64,000 nt of DNA from Barthelona sp. PCE (lineage: Eukaryota): NCBI GenBank assembly GCA_040285745.1, contig JAUFOR010000002.1:1116001-1180000 (forward strand), written 5' to 3'. The notes under the pieces were generated by a model. It worked only from the letters and a program-made list of their open reading frames with translations. It was not told the origin of the DNA and did no database searches. Position numbers and translations under genes: made by a program. Shown piece after piece: positions 2,996-28,397 of the stretch (its first letter is position 1; each line of letters opens with the position of its first letter).

Positions 2996-4990
2996 TTACT
3001 CAATAAAAAACAGAGAATCCTTTGAATTCTTTATGACATCAACGACTTCAATGGTAGAATTAGTCATTACGTCCATTAAAGAAATTGTTTCCGTCTCTGC
3101 CGTCTCTTCACACCCGAAAACTAAAGAAGTTCTTTTCATTTCCAATGTTGCAGGGTTGATACAATAATGAACAATCGTGTTAACAGCTGGAACAATAATG
3201 GAACTCCACCCATGAACGTAATCAGGAAATAGACGCTTTGTGCTGCCAGAATCCAAATCATGATAAATAAGTTCATTGTCATCCTCTTCATCATAGCCCA
3301 AGAATGCAGTTGGGCTGACCCATGCAAGAAAACGCTTCTTCTTTATGAGTCTTGGCAATACATCAGCCAATTGTACGTTTGGTGCCAGCTCCTTCATCTC
3401 CAGTCGACCAAAATTATCCTCTGCAATTGTCATATTGAACGGATTTAAGTGACTGTTACGGAAATAAACCTCTGATACCTGTTCGTACCCATTATCACGG
3501 TCAAAAAAAATGCAACCAGCGTGGTCGGAAAAAACTGATGTAAAAAATACACAGTTCTCATGTAAAACAATCTCTAAAACATCATAAAATCGAATCTTAA
3601 ACAACTTACTCACACTACCGTCCTGACTAAACAGAACTATCTTGTTGCTTTCACCAAGGCGGGCGAAGTCACCAAGATCATTAGTGGCCCACTTGATGCC
3701 AACCCCAAATGCATATTTGTCTTCACAATCATCATCATCAACTGACAAAAGCTGATTAGTGCGCAGCTGGGGGTATACGTTGTGAACAAAACTCCTGTTG
3801 TACCTGTTGTGAGTGCACTCGAGATTGGTCATTTTAACATGGTTCGTGTAGCATGTAGTTGTGTTCGTGCTCGTGTCCACTTTAATATATGATTTATCAC
3901 CAGTACGGATTACGTAACATTCGTCTTGGGCATATACAACACTCTTTCCTTCAAGAACACCGTGGAAAAGAACGTTTTCCTTGTTCTGCCAAACATATTG
4001 CTGTAAAAACGTGCCTTCACGACCACTGTCACTCATACCGCAGTTGACCATGCCAATGATTGTTCTTCCTGACCATATATATGCGCCCTCGTTGCAAAGA
4101 TCTACATCGCTGGTAAAGATTGGTTGATTAATTGCAAAAGCCCGAATGTTACTGATGCATGTGCGCAAAAAAGTTGTGGAACACTTATTGTCAGTTATAT
4201 TAAAGTCAACAAATGTATGACCAGCAAAATAGCAAGAACTGAAAACTAATAACGCAATGCGCTCAGCAGAAACTTCAAACATAAAGACTCCATACACTTT
4301 ATCTTCCAAAAGTTTTAATTTGGCAGCAAGATCACTTCCAGGAATACTAAGGTTAAAATTGTTGATACCATCTGTGAGAATCCATGGACTTTCCTCACTT
4401 ATAGCAACAACACATTTGGAATTATAGACTGGAATGATCTTTGACTCTTCAATGTCCATCTGCTCGAGGGTGAGGTCGCGTTTAACTATGTAATAAGTGG
4501 TGTAACAAAAAAAATCTCCAACTCTCTTTGAGAAGATAACAGAGTTAGTAAATGTATTGTTGGGATACAAAAACAAGCTATATGAACGATATATTGACAT
4601 ATCAAGTCTGACACCATCCTTACATCCATAAAGAGGTGATTTGTTGATCTTATTCAGCACCCAGAAAGAATCTTGGGTAAAAAATAATGCTTCCAACATA
4701 TCAATAGGTGCATCAGTAAATATTTCAAAGGATTGTTCAGTGACATTAGTTCTTACTAGATTTTCATCAAAGGTGAAAAACACTGCATTGAGAGTAGTTT
4801 GGTCTTCAGTTCTGGCAAATGTTGTTTGGTAAAAAACATGGCTTTCATGAACACATTTCTGTATTCTTTCACCGCTATCATCGAAGTCGGGTATAGAGGA
4901 AGGAAAGAATGATCCTGCTAAGATAGAAGAGTTTTGGTTCGATTTGAGCACAGTAAAATCCTTGTTCTTGTAGATTAATGATTCTGCCAT
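2996..4990 (-). CDS. Hypothetical beta-rich protein, member A of an apparent lineage-specific paralogue family
   Basis: Long ORF. The ATG at 4990 (MAESLIYK) lies 13 nt after a CCTTTTC motif. Its C-terminal ETISLMDVMTN resembles the ends of the ORFs at 17862 and 62204. Confidence 0.75.
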   Translation of the reverse strand: MAESLIYKNKDFTVLKSNQNSSILAGSFFPSSIPDFDDSGERIQKCVHESHVFYQTTFARTEDQTTLNAVFFTFDENLVRTNVTEQSFEIFTDAPIDMLEALFFTQDSFWVLNKINKSPLYGCKDGVRLDMSIYRSYSLFLYPNNTFTNSVIFSKRVGDFFCYTTYYIVKRDLTLEQMDIEESKIIPVYNSKCVVAISEESPWILTDGINNFNLSIPGSDLAAKLKLLEDKVYGVFMFEVSAERIALLVFSSCYFAGHTFVDFNITDNKCSTTFLRTCISNIRAFAINQPIFTSDVDLCNEGAYIWSGRTIIGMVNCGMSDSGREGTFLQQYVWQNKENVLFHGVLEGKSVVYAQDECYVIRTGDKSYIKVDTSTNTTTCYTNHVKMTNLECTHNRYNRSFVHNVYPQLRTNQLLSVDDDDCEDKYAFGVGIKWATNDLGDFARLGESNKIVLFSQDGSVSKLFKIRFYDVLEIVLHENCVFFTSVFSDHAGCIFFDRDNGYEQVSEVYFRNSHLNPFNMTIAEDNFGRLEMKELAPNVQLADVLPRLIKKKRFLAWVSPTAFLGYDEEDDNELIYHDLDSGSTKRLFPDYVHGWSSIIVPAVNTIVHYCINPATLEMKRTSLVFGCEETAETETISLMDVMTNSTIEVVDVIKNSKDSLFFIE

Positions 4991-5166
4991 AGATTTAATT
5001 GTGGAAAAGGGAGAAAACAAAAAATATGACAAATATTGGGTTAAATTTTCCGAACAAAGTGCCTCCTCATCTGTGTATTGAGCTAAAACCAGCTCCGCCT
5101 TTTAATTTTCTTTTTCTATTTTCATATATGAAAAAATAGATATGGAATATGCAAACTGTATCCATC

Positions 5167-5194
5167 CAAGGAGGTGGAAAGGTTAATGGTATGA
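5167..5194 (+). repeat. Left terminal inverted repeat
   Basis: CAAGGAGGTGGAAAGGTTAATGGTATGA; the reverse complement of 9276-9303 is TAGGGGGGTGGAAAGGTTAATGGTATGA. Confidence 0.85.
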
Positions 5195-5399
5195 GGAGAC
5201 GGATCCAAGCTATAAACGTTGTCATTGTAAAAGCATAAAAGAAAAAAATTTGGTAGTAGTTGATCTGCAGTTGTTCCGTTTTCTACTACCGCAATTTTCC
5301 AGTACATATTTACAAACATATTAAAATATTAGAGTGCTCAGAAATACATGTGAAAGCTTTCATGTACCTTGTGCCATCATAAAAATGAAAAAATTGAAT

Positions 5400-8300
5400 T
5401 TAGATAGTCTTCTCTATTTCTTTCAGTTCATCATACGTAATCCTTGGGACTGCAGAAGCTTCATTTAATAAAGTCCAATTAAAACGTGTACGAGTTGTTA
5501 ATCTGACTCGAATCTTGGAATCCAGTCCTTTTACCTTAGAAAATCCATGCTCAACTCCAGAATTGCTGGCAGATGCACTGCTATATTGTTTAATTATAGC
5601 TCGGAAACCGGGTAAACCCTCCACAGATTCGTGGGTGTGGCCATGAACAAGTGCTGCACGAACATCTCTTTCTCTAATTCCTGTATCACTGAAATCGAAC
5701 TCATCGGCCACCCTTTGAGCACTTAAAGGGGGCTCACGCACACTTTGGGCACTTGGAGATAGTTCACTCTCCATACGATTGGAAGAACGGCGACTAGGAC
5801 TGAGAAAGCCTGTCGATAATGGTAATACAATTGTTTGGGGTTCCACTTCTGGTGTATAGCGCATTACGACCTTCTTTCGATCTTCATTGGATGGTGAAAA
5901 GTCTAAATAGTAATTGGTACAAAGAATCGAAATTATATACCCCACTAACCCTCTATACAACAAAGGATCATTAAAATCTTTTGCCATATCAACATAAACG
6001 TGATCACTAATAAGATGTATTGCGGGATAATCACTTGCACAGCGCCTGAACTTGGTGCGTAAAAATGAAAAAACCATCATACCTTTTAGTCTGACAAGTT
6101 CCTTCTCTGTAACCTTAACTAAACCTGCTCTGTTAATATTGGGTATCTTTGCATCAACATACAGTTCGTATAATTCTTCCTTCAAACAACTCTTTCTGGG
6201 TTTATCATTTGTGATATCTTTAACCTCCTTATTATGATCCTGGAGCTCAACAGTGCTTAAATCTGAGAGAAGAAAAGCCACCAAAGGTTCGGGCATGATG
6301 AGGAATTTGCAAAAATAATGACGAACATACTCAAAAAGACCATCATGGTATATTGTAGCAAGGCTTGTTGCATTTTCTATTCTTAAATCTGAGCGCCACT
6401 TTCGCAATTCATGCAAAAGAATGGAAACTTGGAAATATGATTGTAAAACTGAAAAATCATTCTTACTGCTCATACGTTGAATGAAGATCATACGAGAATA
6501 AGTAGAAAAATAATTCCTTGCCAATACCCACATATCAGGGCCCAGAGAAAATCCATGAGGCTGCTTATTCCCATCCTTCATGGCCTCATAAAAAGGAGAA
6601 AGAAAATGCCGATAATGATCCTCGTCACAAACAGTATTATTGCTCTTTAACATCCGCTTAATCTCCAAATCCTTACCTTCGTGGTACTTCAGACGAAGAA
6701 TCATATCAGTGATATGAAAATGAGACCATGTTATTGCAAAATCATCAGGAATTGTTTCTGTTCCCTCAGGTAAAAATAGTATCTTGGGGATGTCCATGTA
6801 CAGTCCACCACACAATACATCATAAATCCATTCCAGTGTATCCCAACGAACATTCGAAAGAGATATGGATCTTCCCGTTACTTCACACCAGACTGTATGG
6901 TATTTATAAAACACACGCATAGTATCAACTGTTAACAGCGTCTGTATCTTTGAAAAATTGGCGAGAGATTTCTGCTGATCATCCAACATTTTCGCATATT
7001 TCTCTAAAGAAATCATGGCAAGATGATCAATGAATTCAGTATAATGCTCAAGTACATTGAAACGATAGGCATCATTTGAAAGAGAGTTACTTAAGGTCAA
7101 ATCAACGCCTAACAGGCAAGCATTGCGCTGACTTAACAAGTTTTCAAGGTGTTGACATTCGTGAAATGATGTATATGCAAAGGTAAACATGAGCTTATCG
7201 TCAGAAATCAAACCACCTTCAACCACATCACTGTCAGAATGAACAAATGACTCGATCCATTCTTCTGCTAAATTGTTGATAGTTGCACCAGAAATATCAT
7301 CTGTAACACTCTCATTCTCTGCTGCAGGTTCAGAAAGTGCAAAGATTGGATGAGTTTCATGGAGAGAAACAACGCTGTTAAGTCGAGCAGCAGCAGAACG
7401 TGAAATGGTACGGTTGGTGAATAAATTTGATAAATCTAGCTTCTTAGACAACCCTTCAACAGTTGATTCTTGTGAAACTTGATCGATGATATCCATAGTG
7501 ACGGTTTCATTGGAGACTCTCAACAAATTAAACCTATCTAAATAAGGAATGAAGGATTGATGCTGAATATGACTAGGAAAGAACTCAAACCCACTGGTTT
7601 TTGCCATAATCTTATTTAAAACATGACAAACACATGGAACTCGTGATATTGACGAGCATGCATCACATATCTTTTGAAAAGCGAGCTGTTCTGGCGTGCC
7701 ATTATCAGTTCCAACAACAATCTTAACTTCAGAATCACCCATGTCAATAATAACATCTTCTAAGCACCAGCGATCCCTGTTTTTCCTCTCGATGATTGAA
7801 TATGACTGGATGATTTTGTATTTTTTAAGCCGAGACAAAAACTGTTCGCACAGATCCTGAGCACGTTTGTATTCCGCCTTGCTGATTTCAGGTACTACAA
7901 AATTACGCACAGTGAAATCTGGGTAATCAAGAGGATTAATAACAACTTCAGTTGCGTGGGAAACAGTGAACTCGGTTGAAAATATATCAAAGATGATAAA
8001 CTTACCTTTTAAAGAATCCAAATATTGCTCTAGTGTGATTATTAAATGCTTTTTTTGTGTACATTTTCGTAGAGCTCTCCAAAAATGGATGCTCGACCCA
8101 AACAAGTTCCAGATCGGTTGGTACCTTCAACATAATAAGTGCATCATCTTTGCGTACATCGCTTGACAGATCAAATTCCATAAAAAGAGTTACGTTTTCT
8201 GAATTGTTTGCTGCTTGAACATAAGCAGAGTTAAAAATGGTTTCCAGAATGTAAGGGTGCACAACCTCACCGTAATATGTTGTGTAATCCCTGAAAGCCA

Positions 8301-9153
8301 TCTCAGAACCTGGACCGTATTCAGATCTAATGTTCTTCAAACTTTTATCCATAGCTAAAAATACAAATGGCAAAGCAAAGCCCCTAGCATCGTTAACCCT
8401 AGGAAGCGATACCTTCATCTTAGTGATTTGATGTTCTTGAAGTGTTAATTGTTGGAAACGAAGTGGAAATATTGAATCCTGGATTATTCCAATGTCTGTG
8501 CAAGTCCACTCAAATGTGTCCTTGTTATAATGAATATTTCTTTGATATTTGATGTCAGCATTATCAGTCACATACTTTAAACTACGTTCTGATATAAAAT
8601 TGCGTTTTGATGGAGTCGTAATATACACATCATTCAATATTTTTGCCAGTTCAGCGTCCGTAATCTTGATATTACTTGCTCGAATCATGTGTATAAAATC
8701 ATCCTTATCGAACTCAGGTTTTATCCAATTGTTCACCAAAGCACTCCAGATGATCTTGATATGTTCTTTGTTGGATATCCTGCGAAGATAGTGTTTACCT
8801 GTGAAGATACACAAGCCAATTACATGACAAGAAGCTTTTGAAACCGAACCACGTGATACACGAGCCAGTCTAGGCCCCTTAATGTTGTTATAAGTAGCTA
8901 AAAGCTCTTCGTGAGTTAATATCGCGTACTTATAAGCATTAAAATCATTAGAGTTTGGTAGAACACAGTTTTGTATTTCCAAACAGCCTACTTCATGGTA
9001 ATCTGAACGTAAGCCACCTTCAAGACACACATTAGAGTATAAGTGAACACGGACATGATAACTTTCATTATTTTGTTCTTTTGGATCACTTAGTCTTATT
9101 TTATCCATTGGAATACTCACATTGAACGATTGAAAAGTACCTTCTTTGGACAT
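5400..9153 (-). pseudogene. hAT-type DDE transposase (~1250 aa when joined), split by a +1 frameshift at an A7 run; either a pseudogene or an assembly error
   Basis: ORF 8002-9153 carries the likely first Asp (MEFDLSSD). ORF 5400-8105 carries VGTDNG, CVCHVLN (CxxH), NVRWDT and SASASNSGVEHGFS...RVRL. Removing one base from the T7 run at 8050-8056 fuses them as ...MYTKKHLIIT... Confidence 0.8.
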
Positions 9154-9275
9154 TAAAAAGATATCGTTGAGACTACCTGTGAAAAAAGTAAAAAATTGAG
9201 ATATGCGCTACTGGATTCCACAAGATCTCTTTGTTTGTTATAGTTTTTACAATACCCACAGTGTGGGGTGGTTGA

Positions 9276-9303
9276 TCATACCATTAACCTTTCCACCCCC
9301 CTA
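9276..9303 (-). repeat. Right terminal inverted repeat
   Basis: TCATACCATTAACCTTTCCACCCCCCTA, the inverted copy of 5167-5194. Confidence 0.85.
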
Positions 9304-9505: not shown

Positions 9506-10189
9506 ATGAGAAAGACCGATTCATGTAAGATCAGCGCATTTAGCATGACAAAACCGCCACAACCTGAAAGCTTCACACCAGTTGCTTATCAAAAGCTTCG
9601 GAATAGATTTTATGTTAAGTATATTGCCATCAGCACCAAGAGGATGTTGCTTGTGAACGTGAGAGAATTCAAAGCCCTCAATACTAAGCTACTAGGACTG
9701 TTAACAGATTTGCAAAAACAAAGATTCTCACCACAACTGCAATACATTGTCTACAAGAAGCTGAACAAGTGGCTGGGACACCAACAGATGCTCAATAGCG
9801 AACTCAAGCAAGAGAACTGCACCCAAAGAAACTACTTAGAAAACGCAGAATATGCTGCACCTCGGATAGCTGTTGACTGTAAGTTCGTTGAGCCGCAGAA
9901 GATCCTGGAGCTGTATAAGCGCATTCGAAATTTTAAAAAAAAAGACTTTGATCTAACAAAACTCCTTAAAAAAGAGCTCAAGGAGCTACATCAAACCATT
10001 GCTACTTCCTATCATATCCTCAACCACTACATGCTGTGGTGCCGTACAGAGGCGCTGGAGCTACTCTCTGTCATCAAGACTAACATGAATCTGACAGCAG
10101 ACAACCTCAGCTGCAGCATTAAGACAAGAACGTTTGCTTGCATAAATGCTGGTAATTTCGATCAACAGAGACCTCACACGACTCGCTAA
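9506..10189 (+). CDS. Hypothetical basic, probably helical protein (227 aa)
   Basis: The ORF fills the gap between the transposon and the kinase. Its stop overlaps the kinase stop by 4 nt. No motif recognised. Confidence 0.6.
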   Translation: MRKTDSCKISAFSMTKPPQPESFTPVAYQKLRNRFYVKYIAISTKRMLLVNVREFKALNTKLLGLLTDLQKQRFSPQLQYIVYKKLNKWLGHQQMLNSELKQENCTQRNYLENAEYAAPRIAVDCKFVEPQKILELYKRIRNFKKKDFDLTKLLKKELKELHQTIATSYHILNHYMLWCRTEALELLSVIKTNMNLTADNLSCSIKTRTFACINAGNFDQQRPHTTR

Positions 10190-11406
10190 AGCTTGTCACT
10201 CAGTAAAGATTGAACTTGATTTCCTAAAGAATGAGTATTGTCTACACTAATCAAGTACTCAACCAGATTTATCAAACAATCAATAAGTTGCTGATAATCC
10301 TCGTTATCTGGTTCGCTGAAGTGTCTGGGTAGCTTGAGGTTAAGAATCTTAAGATACTTCAGGAACTCGAAATTAAGAAAATGATTGATTTTGAGCGAGG
10401 AATCATATAAAATCTTGAAACCTATAATTCGGAGTTTCAACCCCAAACATGCCATGTAACTCAGTATGACCTTGAACTCCACCGACCACTGCGCCTGCAA
10501 CGCCTTTATATCGCTGAAATTGGAAGTGTTCAATGAATCAAAAAATGGATCAGTCAGCAGCTCCTCTATAGTAATCCTGTCCTCGGCATTCAGGCTCAGC
10601 AGGCCCTTAAGCAATGGCTTGATCTCGTGCGGTACCTGACTATAGTCAATAGGTTCTCTGATTTTCCGTTGCAGTAATGGAATCGTTCCAGCAACCACTG
10701 GATATGTTCCCACAATCATTTTATACATAATGACACCGAGAGACCAAAGGTCTGTCTTGTAAGTGTATTCTTGGCCCATTAACAACTCTGGTGACATGAA
10801 AAGAGGTGTACCAGCATATGTATTCATATTATTTTCAAATTCTCGAGCAAATCCAAAATCACCAATCATTACTAAAGGTTTAAACTCCTCAAATCTGTGC
10901 ATTAGCTTGGCGTATACCTTGGAATAATCAAGAATAGGTTCTTCTACGTTGGGGAACTGCAAAAAGATATTTGCAGCTTTGAAATCTCGATGAACAACTC
11001 CTTTCTCGTGGAGCTCGATGATTCCCTTGACAATCTCACCTGTGAAGTACCGAACTATCTCTATAGGGAGAGTATTGAACCCGTCTATCAACATTCGTAA
11101 TGTTCCACCGTTGCAGAGATATAAAACAATGAATAGGAAGCCGTCCCTCTCAAAATGATCGTAAAGCTGCACAATATTCGGGTGATCTGATACCTTACAA
11201 TGTATTTCTATCTCTTGCATGATGTTGATATTTGGTACCTGATTCATCCCCTCCAAATCGATCGCTTTGACCGCTACGAACTCGTTATTATACAGTCCTT
11301 TCCGAGATTTTGCTTTAAAAACATGGCTAAAAGCCCCTGTGCCCACAAGCTCGAGTATTTCAAAGTCAGAAAGGATGGTCGTGACTCTACGAAGCTGCTG
11401 GGTCAT
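10186..11406 (-). CDS. Ser/Thr protein kinase, ULK/Atg1/Fused-like
   Basis: GTGAFSHV, VAVK, HRDFKAAN, DFGFAR, GTPLFMSPE, DLWSLG. The ATG at 11406 (MTQQLRR) is preferred to the non-ATG start in the track. Confidence 0.85.
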   Translation of the reverse strand: MTQQLRRVTTILSDFEILELVGTGAFSHVFKAKSRKGLYNNEFVAVKAIDLEGMNQVPNINIMQEIEIHCKVSDHPNIVQLYDHFERDGFLFIVLYLCNGGTLRMLIDGFNTLPIEIVRYFTGEIVKGIIELHEKGVVHRDFKAANIFLQFPNVEEPILDYSKVYAKLMHRFEEFKPLVMIGDFGFAREFENNMNTYAGTPLFMSPELLMGQEYTYKTDLWSLGVIMYKMIVGTYPVVAGTIPLLQRKIREPIDYSQVPHEIKPLLKGLLSLNAEDRITIEELLTDPFFDSLNTSNFSDIKALQAQWSVEFKVILSYMACLGLKLRIIGFKILYDSSLKINHFLNFEFLKYLKILNLKLPRHFSEPDNEDYQQLIDCLINLVEYLISVDNTHSLGNQVQSLLSDKL

Positions 11407-11838
11407 TTCACCTGTGTGAAAGATTAATTGAAAGGGTGCAAAATGTAAAACGAACATTTTTATCAACAGACTGTTCACAACGACTTGTGCCAATTTAATA
11501 GGCTTTATATGAATTTTGACTCACACTAACTCCAATGCAATCTAAGTTTGCAATACACAAAAAAACCTGCAAATTTTGCAAGCTTCACTGAACCTATGCT
11601 CAATAATTCGACTGATTATTGACATAATACACTCACAAGAAGTTCATGAAACGATTTAAAAACACTCACAAAGGCAACAAAGTAGATTTTAAACTTATCC
11701 AAACAAATAACATTGTTAAACAAAAGCAAACCTCTTCAACGCGATTATAGATCAGTATATCCCTCAATACACTTACTTAAAGTTTCCCATTAAAACAAAT
11801 GCCCTGTTATTCGATTTCTTTCATTTTAACACGGCGCA

Positions 11839-14800
11839 ATGTCTAAGAACACTAGCGTCGAGGTCGTAGTCCGTGTCAGACCTTTATCGGACCGCGAAAA
11901 GAGGAATGGAAAGCTTATTTGTTCCATTGATGATCAAAAGAAGCGGTTAACTGTTACAGACACTCCTCAGGGCCAAAGACAGTATTCATTTGACTCAGTT
12001 CTGGGGCCTGAAACCACAAATAACGAAGCATACGAAAATGTTTGTGAGAACGTTGTCAAATCAGCTTTGAATGGTATTAATTCCACTATTTTTGCATACG
12101 GGCAGACGTCTTCGGGTAAGACATACACTATGTATGGTCCAGATGATGGAAGCATGACGGGTGTGATACCCCGCGCTGTTGACACAATTTTTTCACTTAT
12201 AGACAGCAAACCTATCAATTTCAAGTACAAAATCAAGTGTTTTTTCATCGAAATCTACAACGAGAAGATGATTGACTTGCTGAATCAACGCAATTCTCCA
12301 ATAATTCGTCAACATCTTGAACGTGGAGTATATGTTGAAAATGTTGAGCAGGTGCACTGTCGCAGTGTCAGTGATTGTATGAACGTCATCCAGCGCGGCC
12401 TCACCACTCGTACATCACATGCTACGAAAAGCAATGCGCGCAGTTCACGTTCGCATGCAATTTTCCAGATGCAAATTCAATGCAGAGAAACCGTCAGCGA
12501 CGGAGAAGAACAGTTCGAAGTCAATAGAACAAGTGTCCTGAATCTGGTTGATCTTGCTGGTTCGGAGCGTATTGCAAAAACAAAGAGTCAGGGACAGCGA
12601 AGAAAGGAGGGTGGTCACATTAACAGATCTCTACTGTTCTTGGGTAACGTCATCAGTGACCTTGCAAAGATGGAAGAGACGGGTCAGAACGTTCCCATCA
12701 CGTATAGAAATTCGAAACTTACTCGAATCTTGCAAAATTCTCTGGGTGGCAATGCACGCACCCTTGTTTTTTGTTGTGTCGCTGGTGCAAACCATCATAT
12801 GGAAGAGACATTGAGCACACTCATGTTTGCGTCAAAGGCGCGTAAGATCACAAACACTGTTGAGGTGAAGGAGCGAATCAGCGACCGTGATCTCGTCAAG
12901 AAGTACCGTTATGAAATATCGCAGTTGAAAGAGCGCGTCGCACAGCGTGAAAGCGAATTGGAAACAAACCAAGGTCGCCTTGACAGTATGCAATCACAGA
13001 ACGACGATTTGCTTGAGACGCTAAGCGAGCTCAAAGCGCGCGTTGAGCTTATCGAAGCCAGGAAGGAACGAGGTGCCCCAGTTGATGGATTCACTGAGAT
13101 AACCACGCCACTTATGGGACGTACTCCACACACACCTATCAGATCAGTGAGGACAAAGTCGCACGTTACACCCCTCTTAGTATCAGTTCGAAAGTCCGTA
13201 CGGAAGGCCACGCCCATATCTAAGCAGGAGCAAAGTGAGCTTGAGCACTACCTTGAAGAGCGCGAAGCCCACATCATTATGTTGGAAGAATCTCTTTCTG
13301 CAAGGGAACATGACATCGCCACACTTGAGGAGCGTATTATTCTAAGTAAGAAGTTAAACAGCACTGAGCTTGACCGCAAACAGGAGAATATTGATGATCT
13401 GCAGCAGCAGAACGATGAACTATCTGAGTATATATCACAGTTAACCAATGAAATTGGAGAGAAGTCCAACTTGATTGAGCACCTTGAAGAAAAGCTCGAT
13501 GAACAGGTAGAACATGTGCAGAACCTAACAAACGATGTTGGATTACTGGAGATCCAGAAGGATGAATTCCAAGAGGATGCTATCAATTATCAAAAGGAAC
13601 AGTCCCGCTTGGAGAGTATTATTAAGGAGAAAAACTCCGAATTGGATCAACAAGAAGCTTTTATTGAGGAAAGAAATCTACGTATTGAGGCTCTAGAGGC
13701 CGTGAAGACCAGTTCTACAAAGGGTATGCGTGTGCTACAGTCTCAGCTAGAGGATAGCAATAACCGCAATACCATGCTTGAGGGTGTAATCACCGAACTC
13801 AGTTCAACAGTGATGCAGTGGTGCGGTGACCTTCGCAAGGAGCAGAACGCAATCCGTGACACCGTACTTGACAACAACGACACTTACTCATCAATGCTCG
13901 ATGAGATTTCTGTGCGATATGGTGAACAAATAACTGCTGCGACTGAAGCTGAAGTTGACCACGAAAACGTTGTCTCTGAGTTATTATCTGAGATTGAAAG
14001 CGTTAAGGACAGTAGGGATGCGTACATGCAGGAGTGTGCTGCTTACAAAGTTGACATTTCCCGTACAAATACTGAGCTTTCTGAGCTTACTGAAAGTATG
14101 GAGCAACAATCGAAGACTATCACATCGCTGGAGTCTCTTGTTACTGATGGCGAAACATCAAATACAGCTCTTGAGAATCGTATCATAGATATGGAAAAGC
14201 ACCATATGAATTACATTGAAGGGTTACGCTCAGAACTGGAGTTTTGTCCAGAACTTGAGCTTGACCCCGCCGATGACATTGAAGGTCTGGAGGATCTTGT
14301 TAGCAACGCTGTTGAACAAGTGCGCGAGGAGCTAGAGGAGGCGTTAGATTTCAAAAAGTCCTTATCAATGGATTTGTCAACTCTGAATGAAAAGCATGAA
14401 GAGCTCAAAGGTGATCATACCGTTTATAAGAATGACAATGATAATTATAAGAAGGACAATGATAAGTTGGAAAAAATACTTAAGTCTACAAGAACTGAAC
14501 TGAAGGAACTGACCATTCAATTTGAGAGTCAACAGAACATGTTGCAAGGTGAGGCTTCAGAACTCCAGTCCGTCTACACACAATTACAACTAGACCATAA
14601 ATGCTTGCAAACTGGACACAAGAACTTACAGAAGGAGTACTCACGCTTGACTGAGGATGTTGAGAAACTAAATGTGGATCACACTAAACTCCTCACCGAC
14701 CTTTCTGGATTACAGTCTGAGCATGAACATGTGAAGGTACTTAATAGTGAGCTTAATCTGAAAGTACAAAATTTAACTTTGGAGATAAGTGAGAGTCAGC

Positions 14801-17760
14801 GGGAATGTTCTTTTGCTTATGAAAACATGGAACGTTACAAGTCGGAAAGCGAACATATGAAGGATATGTATGATTGTGTATTGAAGGAGAACAGTAAGAT
14901 GCTCAATGAATATGAATATGGTAGAGATTTGGAAAAGGATTATGAAGAAAGATTGGCAGAGAAAGATGATGATATGAAAGAGTTTAAGGAAACTACAGCT
15001 GTTGAAAGAAAACAAGCTGAGAAGCGAATTTCTGATCTGAAACAAGACATTATCAATGCGAAGGCCGAGCATGACATTCTAATTTCCAATATTGAAAAGG
15101 AGTTTAACGAGACAGTCTCTGCAATGGGTGAGGAACATAGAGCAAGAGTGGAGGAACTGCAGTCTACAGTTGCTTCAGTGCAAATTGTTAGGAAAGAACT
15201 TGAAGAATCTATAACCCAGCTCAACGAGGAGAAGGAAGATATCGAGTCCGACTTTGACCTTAAAACAATCGCTTTACGCGACTCAACCGAGAAATTAGGT
15301 CAGTTGCAGGATGAGATTGAATCTCTGAAGAGTGAAATTGATGAGCTCAAGTCTTCGCACCAAGAACAGTTAAACTCTATCAAATCATCACACAAATCTC
15401 AGTTGGAGAGCGCGTTGTCGAATTCTGATAACGAAACTCAGAAGCTGATTGAGACCATCAACACACAAAATAGTCAAGAAATCAAGCGCCTTAACAGCAA
15501 ACTTGAACAGCGTTCTCTTGATATAGAAGCTATAAAGGAACAACATATTTTTGCGCTTGCCGGTTTGGACGCTCAAAATGTCGAGTTGCAGCAAACAATA
15601 ACAGAGTCGAGCTTAGAACATCAAAGATTATCATATCAAATTGCTGAGCTTACTGACTTACAAGAGAGATCCTTGAGTAACTGTGAAAAATTACAAAATT
15701 TGTTGGAATCAAAGAGTGAAGAGAGCATAGTGCTTTCAAATGCTAATAGTGTTTTAGAAACAACCCTTGCTGATCAAACTGAGGTTATGGCCAAGTTGCG
15801 CATGGATTTACAGACGTTAACCGATAACCACAGCACTGTGTGCGATACTCTGCAGAAAGAGAGAGAAGAAATGGAAAGCGAGCGTTTATCAGTGGAATCT
15901 GAAATCACACGTCTCATTGAAGAGATTTCTACTTCGAAGAGCACCGAGGAGCAGCTTAAGAAGGAGCTAACGAGTAAGTGCGCTGATTTATCCGCTGTTA
16001 AATCTAAAAGTGACAAACTGGAGCAGAAAATCGAGGATATCACATTGCAATACAGCACGCTTGAGAAACAGCAACAAGACACTGAAGAGAAGCTCGTTGC
16101 TTCCAATGAGAAGGTTGAAAGTATGACTCAGAAACTCAAAAATTTCAAACAGCGCCTTCATGATGCTGAGTCTTCAAATACTATTCAGAACGACACTCAC
16201 AACAACATCGTAGCTGTTATGCAGGAAGATTTCGAGCGCCAGGCTGTTGTGATTGATGAAATGAAAACCGATTTAGAAAGCTGGAAAGAAAAATCAGAAA
16301 TGCAATCAGAAATGATGGATTCCTTAAAGGAAAAACTGGAGAATGTTCATGCTCAGAGCCGCCGTTCAAACTCGGAGTGTGATGTGCTCAAAGAAGCGGT
16401 TATTGAGAAGGAAAAAGAGCTGAAGGAGTTAACTATTCTGCAAGAAAGAACTCATGTTGAGAAAACTATGTTGGATACACAACTCCTTTCATTTATTAAA
16501 GAATGTGACGCTACCACTGCTGCGCTGAATGAGCAGCTGTCTGTTATGAAGAGTGAACTCACAGAGAAAGACGAAATTTTGAAAACCACAATCGATAACT
16601 CCGCACAGGAACTAATAGACGTAAAAGAAGAACTTACAGCTGCTAAAGACGAGATTAAGGAAGCAAAGAGGACATACAATGAACTTATGGGACGCTATCG
16701 AGATAGTGAAGAGACAGTTTCTGAAATGAGCGATGAGTTAAGTCGTCAACGAGTAACTGAACGCGGATTGGAAGCAAAGATAGAAGAGCAAAAGGAGAGC
16801 ATCTTATCGCTTGAAATCGTTGAGAATGAGCTCAGTGAAATTATTGATAGTCACAAGTCTCAGATGAAGCAGGTGAAGCAGATCATCGCTGAAAAAGACA
16901 CTCTGTTGGCAACACTCGCTGACGAAGGCGAGACCGGTAAGGCTCTGCACGAGCAGGCACAGCGCGGGTACGCACAGAAGCTGAAAGAAATTGAGGCCGT
17001 TGTAACACAATTGCGCCTTGGTAAAGAAGAATTAGAAAACAGATGTGTTCGATTGGAGACTGAACTTAACACCGTCCGTGTCCAAAACGAGGGTATCAAA
17101 CTCCAAATGGAAAATATCCAAGGGCAATCAGCTGAGGAGCAAAACAATCTCACTAAGCGCATAGACGATGCAGAGAAACAGAATTCAGTACTTACAGGCT
17201 TTATTAACAAGCTCGAGAAGGATGTGTCCACTGTAACACATGCAATGAACCATTATAAGTCAAAACTGAGCAAGATCAAGGTACTGAAAGGAAATATGGA
17301 TAAGGCTACTGAAATGTTATGCACCATCTCCATGGATATCATGAGGCAGAATAAGGCTCTTAGTGAACGATTTGGGTTGGAGTTCAATGCCGTCTCAATG
17401 CGTTCACTTCAGCAGCTCATTGATTGCTGTCTGAATTTGGTGGGATGCGATCCATCGGAGTCGAAGGTTGTCGATTCTATCAAGAACACACCCATTGTAT
17501 CGTCTCAGGTTAACAGAACGTTCTCTATCGAGAAGAAAAACGTCCAAGATGTCAGTAAGAAGTTGGTGCTTGATTCACCTAACAACGCCGGTCTACCTGG
17601 CAACAGGACGTCCTCACATGCGTCCGTGCAGTCATCGACAGAAATGAAAGCGAAGTTGCAGGCGTCAAACTCTGTATTGGAGACAGGGTTGACAAACAGC
17701 ATTCGTACTCAACCTAAAAAGAAGATCAGAGGATCTCTTCTGTCGCAGTTCACACTTTAA
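11839..17760 (+). CDS. Kinesin-7 (CENP-E-like) motor with very long coiled-coil tail, 1973 aa
   Basis: N-terminal motor (FAYGQTSSGKTYTM, SSRSHAIF, LNLVDLAGSER, RRKEGGHINRSL, LGGNART) followed by ~1400 aa of heptad-rich sequence. Confidence 0.88.
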   Translation: MSKNTSVEVVVRVRPLSDREKRNGKLICSIDDQKKRLTVTDTPQGQRQYSFDSVLGPETTNNEAYENVCENVVKSALNGINSTIFAYGQTSSGKTYTMYGPDDGSMTGVIPRAVDTIFSLIDSKPINFKYKIKCFFIEIYNEKMIDLLNQRNSPIIRQHLERGVYVENVEQVHCRSVSDCMNVIQRGLTTRTSHATKSNARSSRSHAIFQMQIQCRETVSDGEEQFEVNRTSVLNLVDLAGSERIAKTKSQGQRRKEGGHINRSLLFLGNVISDLAKMEETGQNVPITYRNSKLTRILQNSLGGNARTLVFCCVAGANHHMEETLSTLMFASKARKITNTVEVKERISDRDLVKKYRYEISQLKERVAQRESELETNQGRLDSMQSQNDDLLETLSELKARVELIEARKERGAPVDGFTEITTPLMGRTPHTPIRSVRTKSHVTPLLVSVRKSVRKATPISKQEQSELEHYLEEREAHIIMLEESLSAREHDIATLEERIILSKKLNSTELDRKQENIDDLQQQNDELSEYISQLTNEIGEKSNLIEHLEEKLDEQVEHVQNLTNDVGLLEIQKDEFQEDAINYQKEQSRLESIIKEKNSELDQQEAFIEERNLRIEALEAVKTSSTKGMRVLQSQLEDSNNRNTMLEGVITELSSTVMQWCGDLRKEQNAIRDTVLDNNDTYSSMLDEISVRYGEQITAATEAEVDHENVVSELLSEIESVKDSRDAYMQECAAYKVDISRTNTELSELTESMEQQSKTITSLESLVTDGETSNTALENRIIDMEKHHMNYIEGLRSELEFCPELELDPADDIEGLEDLVSNAVEQVREELEEALDFKKSLSMDLSTLNEKHEELKGDHTVYKNDNDNYKKDNDKLEKILKSTRTELKELTIQFESQQNMLQGEASELQSVYTQLQLDHKCLQTGHKNLQKEYSRLTEDVEKLNVDHTKLLTDLSGLQSEHEHVKVLNSELNLKVQNLTLEISESQRECSFAYENMERYKSESEHMKDMYDCVLKENSKMLNEYEYGRDLEKDYEERLAEKDDDMKEFKETTAVERKQAEKRISDLKQDIINAKAEHDILISNIEKEFNETVSAMGEEHRARVEELQSTVASVQIVRKELEESITQLNEEKEDIESDFDLKTIALRDSTEKLGQLQDEIESLKSEIDELKSSHQEQLNSIKSSHKSQLESALSNSDNETQKLIETINTQNSQEIKRLNSKLEQRSLDIEAIKEQHIFALAGLDAQNVELQQTITESSLEHQRLSYQIAELTDLQERSLSNCEKLQNLLESKSEESIVLSNANSVLETTLADQTEVMAKLRMDLQTLTDNHSTVCDTLQKEREEMESERLSVESEITRLIEEISTSKSTEEQLKKELTSKCADLSAVKSKSDKLEQKIEDITLQYSTLEKQQQDTEEKLVASNEKVESMTQKLKNFKQRLHDAESSNTIQNDTHNNIVAVMQEDFERQAVVIDEMKTDLESWKEKSEMQSEMMDSLKEKLENVHAQSRRSNSECDVLKEAVIEKEKELKELTILQERTHVEKTMLDTQLLSFIKECDATTAALNEQLSVMKSELTEKDEILKTTIDNSAQELIDVKEELTAAKDEIKEAKRTYNELMGRYRDSEETVSEMSDELSRQRVTERGLEAKIEEQKESILSLEIVENELSEIIDSHKSQMKQVKQIIAEKDTLLATLADEGETGKALHEQAQRGYAQKLKEIEAVVTQLRLGKEELENRCVRLETELNTVRVQNEGIKLQMENIQGQSAEEQNNLTKRIDDAEKQNSVLTGFINKLEKDVSTVTHAMNHYKSKLSKIKVLKGNMDKATEMLCTISMDIMRQNKALSERFGLEFNAVSMRSLQQLIDCCLNLVGCDPSESKVVDSIKNTPIVSSQVNRTFSIEKKNVQDVSKKLVLDSPNNAGLPGNRTSSHASVQSSTEMKAKLQASNSVLETGLTNSIRTQPKKKIRGSLLSQFTL

Positions 17761-22867: not shown

Positions 22868-25800
22868 TTATTGAAGAGGAATGCTGAAAAGTAAAATCTC
22901 CCCGTTTGGAGCCTTGATTAAACAAACTTGATGCTCATTATGCTGAACAATAACGTCGTTATACCAGATCTGATCGTTCAGTTCACAATTTCCAATCTGC
23001 CAGTTGCTGAAGTTTGCAATCTCTCCCGTAAGATAGTTATATAAATATAAGTCAAAATTGCGATTGAGAACTCCAAAGTAAAGCACACCATTCAATTTTG
23101 TGAACAAAAGTGAACGGAAAAAGCCATGGAACTCCTTGAACTGTTCAAAATGCAATTGACGAACCAAATTTAATGATTTATGTGCCGCACTGAACTTGAA
23201 AGTGAATACTTTTTCGAACACTGGATTAAACACAACTATTTCTGACTTATAAGGAGAAAAGAATACTTCAGAATTCTTTATCACGTTGACGTCATCAAGA
23301 ACAGGATGCTCAATACTTAGAATATCCGCCAGAATATCTGAGCGAAGACAAAACTCCGACATATGGTCGAAAGAAACAATGTGCGACTTGACTCCACCGA
23401 CAGTTGCTGTCTTCTGCTCCTTTATCTCGAGCTTCCAAAACGATAGTGAACTGGCGATTCGAGAATAAGTTACAAAAACTATAAGGTCTATGTGTTCGGT
23501 TGTGCTTAGATAGTACCGTTCGATAATATCCACTGGGAGACCTTCAACAACCGTTGTCTGCGCTATAACAATACCGCTGTCGGTGTCAATCAAAAACATC
23601 CTTCCGTTCTTAAACGTGACACACATAAGGTATGGGAGTAGAAACTTGACGTTGGTGATGCATGATTTCTCCTTGAGAGAGATCTTATGCGATAATTTGA
23701 GTTCATTCAACAAATTCCATTCGTGAATACGCACTGTCTTGCTCTCAGTTGAGATGGCAAGTTGTAGCTTGTCGTTTCGCAGTGTACTGGCAACACAGAT
23801 ACCCTTCAAAGGCTTCTTCCAGTTGAAGCAGTTGATCAACTGCACGCCATTTCTGAAAATAAACATACATGACCGATAGCAAACAACGACTAGGAAAGAA
23901 TGCTCCGAAAACGGGTGAATGCTTGTATGAATGGGCTTGCCGAAGCGGTTAACCGATGGTAAGACACCAAAAGCGTTCAGTTGAAGCTCGTCCTCGTCAG
24001 AAGTCATGAGATCCTCAGGAAGAGTGAAGCATAATGCTGACCCTGCTGTGAAGTCAAACAGTAGCGCGTCGTGAACATCACAGTAAGCAAGGGTGGTTAT
24101 AATATCCTTGGTTGATACTTTCTGTGTCAGTGCTGACTTGATTGGAACTCTGAACAAACACACGTTGTTTCTGAACGAGAACAGCTCTGCGCCAGATGTC
24201 ACGAAGAGAGCATCCTTCGCCTCGATGTACAAGGCCTGCGAAAGCTCAACGTCTTCATCGATTGTTGCATACAAGTCAACGTGGGTTCGATCAACGACGT
24301 TGTATACAACACCGCGCTTTGAAATGACATTTAACACACCTTTAACTGTGAACGTGTTAACGAGGGTGTCGTCGGCGTCGAGCAGTGACGATCCGTCGAA
24401 AACAACCTGCACATCAACCAGAGCGTCCATGACATTGTAGGTGTAAGAGTACACTGCCATATCGGACACTAAATGGGTACCGATGATACGGTGGATGTTT
24501 GTGCCGGCTGTGAACTGGTATATTGAGCAGAACTCACTTTGCTCAACGTTGAATATCTTAACAGCTTGAGTCATGAGGTACACAATGTACTGTCCATCAA
24601 ACGGCTGGATGTCAATAATCTCCTCTTCGTCACCGACCTGGACGTCAATCGTAGTGGTGAGCGAGTAGTCGCCAACTGTATACACGTACATCCTGTCCTT
24701 GCACACAACATACAGCAGAAGCTCGTCGGGTGACAGGAAGGCTGTAAGGATGTTCTTGCTAACGAACACAGAGCGCTGCAGCGCCAACGATCGATCGAAG
24801 AAAAGAACAGAATCCTGAGTCACCCACAAGACAAAGCTATTGGTCACAAGCAACGAACGGCCCTTACTAGCGAGCAGACACTGGCTGTAATCATAACACG
24901 ACAGGAGGTGAGCCCATTCCGTATTGGTCACGGGAGGGACAGATATCTTCTGCTTAACTCCTTCTGCACCACCATCAATAATCCCTGATGAAAAGCGCGA
25001 TGAACCTGATGATATCTCACTAATATCGTCCGAATCGTAGTCGACACTGTCGATGCTCTCACTTGTATCTTCAACACCCTTACCCATCTTTTGAAGATGC
25101 TCCTTGAATATTGTCTGTAAACGATTAGTCTCTGGCGTGACTTCCTCCTCTGCAGTCTCTTCGGCCTTGGAGTGACGGAATACATCCAACAAGTTCTGAA
25201 CGTTGGGCGTCTCGTCCTCCTCCTCTTCAAGAGTAGAAGGCTGCATGCGTGGTGTCGCCAATAGCATATCTGTGTTCATGCTGTCTGCTTCGTTAGTGAG
25301 GCGCATCTGCACCAGTGTCTTTCCCATCGAAACATACACGCGCTTGCTGTCGCGGGAGCATGATATACCTGTAACTGCAGACGAACTTATCGAATATGTG
25401 CATACGATATCAAGAGAAATGCGGTCGACCAAGACCAGCGTGCCTTCGCTGGAACCTACAATGATGTAGCGCATATTTGGGGTAACCGCTACAACAAAGC
25501 TGCACAGATCATCACTAAATATTGCTCTTTGTTTGATGACTGTGTTGAAATCTGAAGCGACCCTCGCAAGATGACCGTTGTCCAAGCAGACGATGAACTC
25601 ATGGTCGCACTCAATCAGTGACAGAATTGTGCCGCTTGACACTTTGAAAGACGTACGAGGCTCGAGGCTGAGCAAATCAAGCACGATGACCTCACCCATG
25701 CTCACTGTGAATCCACTCAGGAATATGGTTCCATCAACGTGGGCGATTGATGCACGGCTACTGAGGTTTCTGTTCAGGCTCAATGATGCACGGCTCTCCC

Positions 25801-28111: not shown

Positions 28112-28397
28112 GTTCCCCGGTACGATTAACGATTGCGAAAAGAGAGAAAAGAGGAAAACGTTTCTCACAACAGTCTTCATCGGTAAATGATCAACTGTTG
28201 GCACTTTACACAACCTAAGACAGCTGCGGTACTACAAAAAACCAAACCGCAAGGTAAAAAGTCCACAAAAACACCATTTTCTTCTATATACACTATTAGT
28301 GTCTGTACAATTAATACAGTGGACATTTGTTTGAAGTCACATTGATTTGATATGGTTAATTATCAAATGTGTATTCTGATAACTTGTAATACAATTC

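Follow-up and report, generated by a model that had tools for sequence, protein, structure and literature searches.

An unannotated, highly divergent hAT-like transposon family with an altered architecture in the metamonad Barthelona sp. PCE

A 4137-bp unit in the genome of Barthelona sp. PCE, a tiny marine protist belonging to the metamonads, is probably a copy of a lineage-specific and very divergent cut-and-paste transposon of the hAT superfamily. The family to which it belongs is real, unannotated, highly divergent and hAT-like, with an altered architecture; it does not amount to a new type of mobile element. The features of this copy within the stretch of DNA that was analysed (64,000 nucleotides, hereafter the window) are collected in Table 1.

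Results

The terminal inverted repeat (TIR) of the element is far beyond chance. Its arms (5170-5194 and 9276-9300) span 25 nt and are 96% complementary; taken out to 5167 and 9303, the repeat is 28 nt long, with 25 of 28 positions matching and a perfect core of 22 nt. With up to three mismatches allowed, the 64-kb window contains the core exactly twice, and two matches were obtained in none of 100 shuffles, which bears out the perfect 22-bp inverted repeat that the initial annotation had placed around the ORFs. The terminal consensus [T/C]AGNGNNG (YAGNGNNG) has been derived from plant hATs (PMC6027215); of the five positions that this plant consensus specifies, the right end (TAGGGGGG) matches five and the left end (CAAGGAGG) four. 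No 8-bp target-site duplication (TSD) was present at the single copy examined, where the flanks TATCCATC and GTGTGAAG agree at one of eight positions, and a scan over 36 x 36 combinations of end offsets gave no duplication where the TIRs of this copy end. Among yeast hATs, 9 of 46 copies with two TIRs are reported to have no TSDs (PMC4316626). A search for subterminal repeats gave no convincing repeated transposase-binding motif, the sole shared word being a 9-mer in inverted orientation, and no further copies of the element were found within the 64-kb window.

Table 1 Features of the element in the window (residues in the numbering of the 1250-aa read-through)
Feature	Position	Strand	Remarks
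Whole element	5167..9303	-	4137 bp, with a host gene on each side (ORF 2996-5032, minus; ORF 9506-10189, plus)
Terminal inverted repeat, gene 3' end, CAAGGAGG...	5167..5194	+	Perfect core 5173-5194
Terminal inverted repeat, gene 5' end, TAGGGGGG... (read inwards)	9276..9303	-	Perfect core 9276-9297
ORF1, 383 aa	8002..9153	-	First 368 aa transposase, last 15 aa out-of-frame tail
ORF2, 901 aa	5400..8105	-	First 19 aa out of frame, other 882 aa transposase
A7 run (T7 on the plus strand)	8050..8056	-	One base above the frame of paralogs P0002 and P0003
D328, proposed first catalytic Asp (EFDLSSD)	8170..8172	-	Kept in all rows present except P0006 (G)
D483, proposed second catalytic Asp (GTDNGTPE)	7704..7706	-	Invariant in 8 of 8 rows
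C507-x-x-H510	7623..7634	-	24 aa beyond D483; unchanged in all 8 rows
R769-W770 (VRW)	6843..6848	-	Unchanged in all 8 rows; corresponds to Hermes R318-W319
E1201-H-G-F1204-S1205 (VEHGFS)	5538..5552	-	No change at E, F (+3) or S (+4) in any of the 8 rows
C-terminal 142 aa	5400..5825	-	Nearest language-model neighbours are hAT dimerisation-domain clusters

The two ORFs overlap on the minus strand, with ORF2 in the +1 frame. Skipping one base of the A7 run, the sole lesion in the coding sequence, joins them into a reading of 1250 aa without a stop codon. The paralogs read straight through here, in support of the fusion at this site into a protein of about 1250 aa that had been proposed at the outset. 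The transposase part of ORF1 consists of an N-terminal region of about 320 aa of no known family and the first candidate catalytic Asp (D1), and the 882 in-frame residues of ORF2 hold the second (D2), CxxH, RW, E and a hAT-like C-terminus. If the assembly is right, the one extra A in the run leaves the window copy unable to make a full-length transposase alone. ORF1 ends in AAA-AGG-TAA, and a programmed +1 frameshift there was considered and rejected because the paralogs are in frame well upstream, which places the shift in the A7 run. A real intron joining the ORFs, as in the public gene model P0001, which removes the 70 nt of 8028-8097, was likewise rejected: the stretch that it skips is coding in P0002 and P0003, and part of it is present in subfamily B of the family (described below). 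The intron of the P0001 model is an invented one that hides the frameshift.

The initial annotation had read D, D, CxxH, RW and E, then RxRL, in this order, with about 155 aa between the Asp residues, 260 aa from CxxH to RW and 720 aa from D2 to E. Both order and spacing held, with distances of 155 aa for D1-D2, 260 aa for H-W, 718 aa for D2-E and 431 aa for W-E; within the family D1-D2 ranges from 152 to 167 aa. Invariance was scored in an eight-row alignment of subfamilies A, B and C. Across them 73 columns are invariant, and they include the hAT key residues D483, C507, H510, R766, W767, E1198, F1201 and S1202 (P0002 numbering), with the D328 column varying in one row only. The key residues reported for known elements are D180/D248/R318/W319/E572 in Hermes and C401/H404/[F/W]722/S723 in Ac (PMC6027215); the E1201 motif, in which RVRL follows VEHGFS, is the counterpart of Ac E719, [F/W]722 and S723. 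A (C/D)xxH motif is expected 15-45 aa after D2 in both MULE and hAT transposases (PMC5499845), so CxxH is not exclusive to hAT. As had also been noted, the N-terminal 320 aa or so lack a BED zinc finger, a domain that many hATs have but some do not: zf-BED gave no match among 17 protein scans against Pfam, and the first 320 residues contain one invariant Cys column and no invariant His column across the subfamilies.

A profile search of 1.84 billion representative proteins returned nine relatives only, and those bearing names are all 'hypothetical protein' of Barthelona sp. PCE, which supports the earlier description of the lineage as undescribed. The hAT-class elements hAT.1, hAT.2 and hAT.3N1 of another metamonad, Trichomonas vaginalis (PMC7845603), were not among the relatives from this search. 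The relatives form three subfamilies (A, B and C) with a mutual identity of only about 20%, and the family is multi-copy, with eight named protein clusters in Barthelona sp. PCE whose longest contigs have four different sizes. Members of subfamily A are 83-93% identical to the window translation, a similarity that suggests fairly recent copying. Each subfamily has a full-length member with all key residues (P0002, of 1247 aa, P0004 and P0011), and five members are truncated (P0003, P0005, P0006, P0010 and P0012). Furthermore, a 269-aa family protein consists of the first 136 residues joined to the last 133, as expected of a derivative formed by internal deletion. Scanning metagenomes with protein patterns gave 134 matching stretches, none of which was confirmed by tblastn, and the scan with the TIR 22-mer matched none. 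No description of the family was found in the literature searched; the main text of the genome paper mentions transposons three times, never in relation to Barthelona elements, and has no mention of hATs.

Searches with known domains gave no significant hAT match. The hAT dimerisation domain (Dimer_Tnp_hAT, PF05699) had no match in 12 family members at E <= 10 or, at E <= 0.1, in either window ORF, and the MULE, SWIM, THAP and P-element families of Pfam gave none at E <= 10. Pfam DUF659 matched three of five members below its cut-off (best E 0.0047), and these sub-threshold matches always cover GTDNG..CxCH, that is, the second Asp and CxxH. Sequence searches of the PDB with two profiles and two single proteins returned chance-level rows and did not find Hermes; NCBIfam and PHROGs likewise gave chance-level rows only. 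In the ESM Atlas, Dimer_Tnp_hAT was carried by 27 of the 30 neighbours of the C-terminal 142 aa, with top scores of 0.91-0.92, which are uncalibrated for protein parts. For the whole of P0004, hAT-type Pfam families were on nine of the ten rows listed (scores 0.87-0.89); the top row was DUF7963, whose family only two of the ten best matches have. The shared-feature counts for the C-terminal 142 aa (156-165) are below the 170 typical of true family members, and Atlas scores serve as leads only; according to the tool, a third of shuffled proteins also reach ten of ten agreeing matches.

Both AlphaFold2 models are poor (pLDDT 34.4 and 44.7). Predicted strands around D1 (P0005 120-125 and 132-138), from a poor model, would fit a beta1-beta2 hairpin. 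Foldseek with the 528-aa model found nothing in the PDB at E <= 0.001 (best E 0.79), and a wide VIA-align search placed none of 48,161 chains at Z >= 5. Hermes (8edg_A) came fifth among these 48,161 chains for the partial model, in an alignment of 116 residues that spans Hermes 133-263, at values that are within noise according to the tool (Z 3.3, rmsd 6.8, model pLDDT 44.7). The initial interpretation is upheld in part: its assignment of the element as hAT-like is supported by the invariance and order of the key residues, the ends, the weak DUF659 matches and the Atlas neighbours, and a significant hAT match in Pfam or the PDB is missing.

The element resembles Hermes and Ac in the order and identity of its key residues (D, D, CxxH, R-W, E-x-x-F-S, then R/K-L), YAGNGNNG-type terminal nucleotides, short TIRs and a single gene per element. 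The Barthelona transposase, at 1250 aa, is twice the usual hAT size, the lengths of Hermes and Ac being about 610 and 800 aa. Unlike Hermes and Ac, the element has no BED finger, no Pfam hAT match and, at one copy, no 8-bp TSD. Its spacings also differ: D1-D2 is 155 aa compared with 68 in Hermes and 66 in Ac, H-W 260 compared with 51 and 60, and D2-E 718 compared with 324 and 352 (PMC6027215). The residue two after D1 is Ser, in contrast to Trp in Hermes (W182) and Kat1 (W312) (PMC4763223).

We also set the element beside Kat1 of Kluyveromyces and Roamer of Naumovozyma, hATs of the Ac group, by their descriptions. Both share with it a limited similarity to other hATs and a frameshift in the coding sequence (PMC4763223, PMC4316626), and the 28-bp TIR of Roamer has the length of the extended Barthelona repeat (PMC4316626). 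Kat1 also has a greatly enlarged helical region between D2 and E (D377-E895, 518 aa), with 171 aa between H405 and W576 against 260 aa here, but differs in its D1-D2 distance of 67 aa, BED domain, Trp after D1 and programmed -1 frameshift (PMC4763223). Roamer differs in matching the Pfam dimerisation domain and in having 8-bp TSDs (PMC4316626). Of the initial proposal of a large hAT lineage with extra inserts in both the RNase H fold and the insertion domain, the doubled D1-D2 distance stands without counterpart in Hermes, Ac and Kat1; the enlarged insertion domain has a precedent in Kat1.

MULEs have long TIRs or foldback ends, together with zinc-finger DNA-binding and SWIM domains. MULE transposases such as those of Muta1 and MuDR share with the Barthelona protein a (C/D)xxH motif 15-45 aa after D2, a W that is important for function and a DDE triad, the latter a candidate one here, and MULEs and hATs both use hairpin chemistry (PMC5499845). 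In Muta1 (D283, W401, E419), however, W precedes E by 18 aa and D2-E is 136 aa, compared with 431 and 718 aa here (PMC5499845). None of the MULE traits considered (W near E, a D2-E distance of about 100-140 aa, MULE or SWIM Pfam domains, long or foldback TIRs, zinc fingers for binding DNA) was found in the Barthelona element.

Discussion

By analogy with hAT biology, the transposase of about 1250 aa would use its unclassified N-terminal region of some 320 aa to bind the terminal repeats of 28 nt and would cut with a DDE site formed by D328, D483 and E1201, with CxxH and R-W assisting. Cleavage may leave hairpins on the flanking DNA, after which the element would be reinserted. Relative to Hermes, Ac and Kat1, the protein has its two Asp further apart by about 85-100 residues, and its D2-E region, predicted to be all-helical, is 1.4 to 2.2 times as long. 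The window copy could move in trans through intact paralogs, such as the 1247-aa P0002.

Kolobok and P transposases also have D, D, CxxH, W and E. The family might accordingly be a member of another superfamily with these residues (MULE, Kolobok or P), or of a lineage without a name that is sister to hAT and MULE, a reading to which we give little credence. It gains from the lack of a hAT HMM match, from the missing 8-bp TSD at the window copy and from a D1-D2 distance of 152-167 aa in the family compared with 66-68 aa in Hermes, Ac and Kat1, and CxxH 15-45 aa after D2 with W before E is common to MULE and hAT (PMC5499845). Against it, a long helical stretch separates W from the E that follows it, as in hATs, over a distance of 431 aa compared with 18 aa in Muta1; E-x-x-F-S equals the Ac invariants (PMC6027215); the C-terminal Atlas neighbours are hAT dimerisation clusters in 27 of 30 cases; no MULE, SWIM, THAP or P-element Pfam family was matched at E <= 10; and the ends fit YAGNGNNG. 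It is also rather improbable that the family branches deeply as a lineage of its own within the hAT/MULE assemblage, of superfamily rank and still active, with about 90 extra residues in the RNase H fold, Ser in place of the hairpin-assisting Trp beside D1, a new non-BED N-terminus and perhaps altered cleavage or target chemistry; such altered chemistry would explain the missing 8-bp duplication. Similarly improbable, in our estimate, is an immobile family of domesticated or decaying transposase genes in which the window TIR is a relic. The absence of a TSD at the window copy, the many truncated members, the loss of D1 in P0006 and the very small genome of 10.2 Mb (PMC11316075) would agree with immobility, but the repeat has a 22-nt core free of mismatches, all three subfamilies include a full-length member in which every key residue is present, a deletion derivative exists and subfamily A remains 83-93% identical to the window translation. 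A very divergent hAT transposon is the reading that we prefer.

The frameshift might be no defect, either as a homopolymer assembly error, in which case the copy would be intact and autonomous, or as a shift bypassed in expression as in Kat1; we regard this as a possible but unlikely account. Homopolymers are the usual weak point of Nanopore assemblies polished with Illumina reads, and both parts of the 1250-aa reading are free of stop codons. The assembly was made from Nanopore R9.5 reads with Illumina polishing (PMC11316075), and the -1 frameshift of KAT1 is bypassed by programmed frameshifting (PMC4763223, PMC4316626). On the other hand, Illumina coverage was 308x (PMC11316075) and the window copy differs from its closest paralog by about 7% at the protein level, so polishing reads should probably have been placed uniquely. 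P0002 and P0003 are in frame at the A7 site, and the shift site is therefore not a conserved feature; the shift required is moreover +1, unlike the -1 shift of Kat1.

As a very divergent hAT family, these elements indicate that hAT-type chemistry can reside in a protein of twice the usual size, with the spacing of the RNase H core doubled, and they bear on the possible growth of the hAT insertion domain. At 10.2 Mb, the genome of Barthelona sp. PCE is smaller than any other reported from a free-living eukaryote (PMC11316075), which raises the question of why it keeps three subfamilies of a 4-kb transposon. The sequence has diverged so far that the family escapes Pfam, sequence searches of the PDB and the annotation of the genome itself, and in the annotation of protist transposons such genes become 'hypothetical proteins'.

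Structure of the element and its coding sequence

The 22-nt core of the terminal inverted repeat (TIR) is perfect and brackets two overlapping ORFs, as described in the initial annotation. It has exactly two sites in the 64 kb, even with up to three mismatches allowed, and two matches to it occurred in 0 of 100 shuffles. Outward extension adds 3 positions, giving a repeat of 28 nt with 25 matching. The termini, read inwards, are CAAGGAGG at 5167 and TAGGGGGG at 9303. Compared with the terminal consensus [T/C]AGNGNNG, which derives from plant hATs (PMC6027215), the right end fits at 5/5 specified positions and the left end at 4/5.

Features of the element (window coordinates)
Feature	Position	Strand	Description
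Whole element	5167-9303	minus	4137 bp, between host ORFs 2996-5032 and 9506-10189
Inverted repeat	5170-5194 / 9276-9300		25 nt, 96%, from repeat search
ORF1	9153..8002	minus	383 aa
ORF2	8105..5400	minus	901 aa, overlaps ORF1, +1 frame
A7 run	8050-8056 (T7 on plus strand)	minus	Site where paralog-based frames switch

An 8-bp target-site duplication (TSD) was absent at this copy: the flanks TATCCATC and GTGTGAAG agree at one position, and a 36 x 36 end-offset scan found no duplication at the repeat ends (best 6/7, at unrelated offsets). Such flanks count against a recent simple insertion of this copy. Among yeast hATs, 9 of the 46 copies with two TIRs were reported to lack a TSD, an absence attributed to age or inter-copy recombination (PMC4316626). 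A 9-mer, ATTGTAAAA, lies in inverted orientation at 5224-5232 and 9245-9253, approximately 50-55 nt inside each end; it may be a chance occurrence or a subterminal motif for binding. No Pfam family was matched by the two directly flanking ORFs; the product of the nearby ORF 10186-11493 (minus) matches Pfam Pkinase (E 2.6e-53) and is a Ser/Thr protein kinase. The window also contains very long uninterrupted ORFs (41409-57155, plus, 5248 aa; 11839-17760, plus, 1973 aa; 22868-28213, minus, 1781 aa), and the stretch that holds them is densely packed and apparently intron-poor.

Fusion of the two ORFs at the A7 run, proposed from the sequence, was borne out by paralogs. Both P0002 (1247 aa, 93% identity) and P0003 are uninterrupted across the break (...MYTK[D/K]HLIITLEQYLDSLKGKF...); their tblastn pieces, in different frames, overlap over 8053-8084 for P0002 and join at 8050-8054 for P0003. 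When one A of the run is skipped, the two parts, both free of stops, join into a reading of 1250 aa; the extra A may be genuine, an assembly error or bypassed during expression. In the public gene model for the locus, P0001 (1227 aa, 100% identity), 8028-8097 (minus strand) is instead excised as a 70-nt GT..AG intron. This segment exactly covers the frameshift, and the residues lost with it are encoded in the paralogs, so the intron seems to be an artefact of gene prediction. According to the genome paper, the 10.2 Mb genome was assembled from Nanopore data with Illumina polishing, and its gene models come from AUGUSTUS. The paralogs rule out the alternative of a Ty1-like +1 site in AAA-AGG-TAA, where ORF1 ends.

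A transposase family in Barthelona sp. PCE

A word-indexed search with ORF2 (7612 candidates) found five proteins, each a "hypothetical protein" of Barthelona sp. PCE. A profile of those five recovered only 9 proteins at E <= 0.001 from 1,835,955,588 representative proteins; among the named members, none came from outside Barthelona sp. PCE, and the family was not found in the JGI metagenomes searched. The family comprises subfamilies A (P0001, P0002, P0003, P0007), B (P0004, P0005, P0006, P0008) and C (P0010, P0011, P0012), and P0009 is an additional fragment. P0004 (986 aa) is 40% identical to the query, and subfamily C, which includes the more distant P0011 (1110 aa) and P0012, shares 21-23% identity with B. 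P0006, P0011 and P0012 are likewise Barthelona sp. PCE proteins.

The contigs carrying family members come in at least four sizes, and subfamily A members share 83-93% identity with the window translation. P0007 (269 aa) consists of the first 136 and last 133 transposase residues (window 9108-8701 then 5801-5403; 90 and 83% identity, respectively) and probably derives from an internally deleted, non-autonomous copy elsewhere. The truncated P0006 (792 aa) carries Gly at residue 301, in the column of the proposed first catalytic Asp (D1), and is probably an inactive copy. The multiple contigs, the close identities and the probable deletion derivative speak for present or past mobility of the unit.

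Key residues and spacings

The motifs D, D, CxxH, RW and E, noticed earlier in hAT order, were located in the read-through at D328 (D1), D483 (D2), C507, H510, R769, W770 and E1201, and they are conserved across subfamilies. In a 12-sequence alignment, 73 columns were invariant (same in all rows present, all three subfamilies represented), including, in P0002 numbering, G481-T482-D483, G485, P487, E488, P506-C507, H510, V765-R766-W767, V1197-E1198, F1201 and S1202. The D328 column was broken solely by P0006. The essential or invariant hAT residues listed for Hermes are D180, D248, R318, W319 and E572, and for Ac D301, D367, C401, H404, R463, [W/F]464, E719, [F/W]722 and S723 (PMC6027215); the conserved key columns of the family correspond to them one for one.

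Motif spacings (aa); for subfamilies B and C the positions of the motif starts were subtracted, and Hermes, Ac and Kat1 values derive from published residue numbers
Spacing	Window	Subfamily B	Subfamily C	Hermes	Ac	Kat1
D1-D2	155	152	167	68	66	67
H-W	260			51	60	171
D2-E	718	706	625	324	352	518

The window spacings agree with the approximate values first read from the sequence (~155, ~260 and ~720). The doubled D1-D2 distance is without counterpart among Hermes, Ac and Kat1, whereas the D2-E helical region is also enlarged in Kat1, a partial precedent. The Kat1 paper is inconsistent on the second Asp, which it calls D377 in one place and D328 elsewhere (PMC4763223); of the two, only D377 fits the CxxH distance (C402..H405). 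Residue D1+2, a Trp that helps hairpin formation in Hermes (W182) and Kat1 (W312) (PMC4763223), is an invariant Ser (S330) in the Barthelona family.

Profile, language-model and structure searches

Pfam scans of the two window ORFs (E <= 0.1) and of 12 family members (E <= 10) gave no match to Dimer_Tnp_hAT, BED, MULE or any other transposase family. The N-terminal ~320 aa had no family match and no conserved Cys/His pattern, in keeping with the initial remark that no BED finger was obvious. The sole recurring signal, DUF659, was below the cut-off (best E 0.0047), seen in 3/5 members in one scan and 0/7 in the other, always over IIDMGD..KIVVGTDNGTPE..PCxCHVLNK. Searches of PDB with two profiles and two single proteins returned nothing real.

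Language-model neighbours were taken as leads only. When the C-terminal 142 residues of the window protein were used, 27/30 matches fell in the Dimer_Tnp_hAT set (top 0.92, 0.92 and 0.91), on a scale uncalibrated for protein parts. For whole P0004, 9/10 listed rows were hAT-type families at 0.87-0.89, where scores below 0.9 are not evidence; the neighbours were Dimer_Tnp_hAT, DUF659, ZBED1/ZBED5 RNase-like, hAT-like_RNase-H and DUF4371, and the top row, DUF7963, was shared by just 2 of the 10 best. Shared-feature counts were 156-165, versus 170 usual for true members, and full agreement of ten matches also arises in one third of shuffled proteins.

AlphaFold2 models had low pLDDT (P0004, 5 family sequences, 34.4; P0005, 8 family sequences, 44.7), reaching 55-80 in P0005 only at residues ~95-190. 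The model places two strands in that stretch, 120-125 (with D1 at its end) and 132-138, in line with an RNase H fold, whose first hairpin would be expected to look like this. Foldseek with this model gave no match (best E 0.79). In an exhaustive VIA-align search of 48,161 chains, none reached Z >= 5; Hermes 8edg_A ranked 5th at noise level (Z 3.3, rmsd 6.8), although its alignment, 116 residues pairing model 42-272 with Hermes 133-263, was the longest among the ten best chains.

Assignment and significance

The main alternative to a hAT is a MULE, which shares CxxH and the W; the Cys lies 24 aa past D2 here, inside the 15-45 aa range common to hAT and MULE (PMC5499845). However, in the MULE Muta1 the W precedes E by 18 aa and D2-E is 136 aa (PMC5499845), a layout unlike the present one, and the Pfam scans of the window ORFs and family members showed neither a MULE nor a SWIM domain. 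In how it works, the element comes closest to a hAT. Significant sequence evidence is absent; the hAT case rests on conserved columns, ends, language-model neighbours and structure. Given the unmatched hAT-domain HMM, the absence at this copy of the 8-bp TSD, a defining hAT feature, and the low-confidence structure models, we file it as hAT-like, not as a proven member. The suggested undescribed large hAT lineage with extra inserts is partly supported.

hAT families are annotated in another metamonad, Trichomonas vaginalis (PMC7845603, table), so a hAT in this supergroup is not in itself new; a term search of the Barthelona genome paper gave 0 occurrences of "hAT" and nothing on Barthelona transposons. 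The novelty lies in a family that escapes standard profiles and is known so far from one organism, and whose enzyme is 1250 aa long with an enlarged catalytic core. Its interest is moderate for transposon specialists and practical for the annotation of protist genomes.
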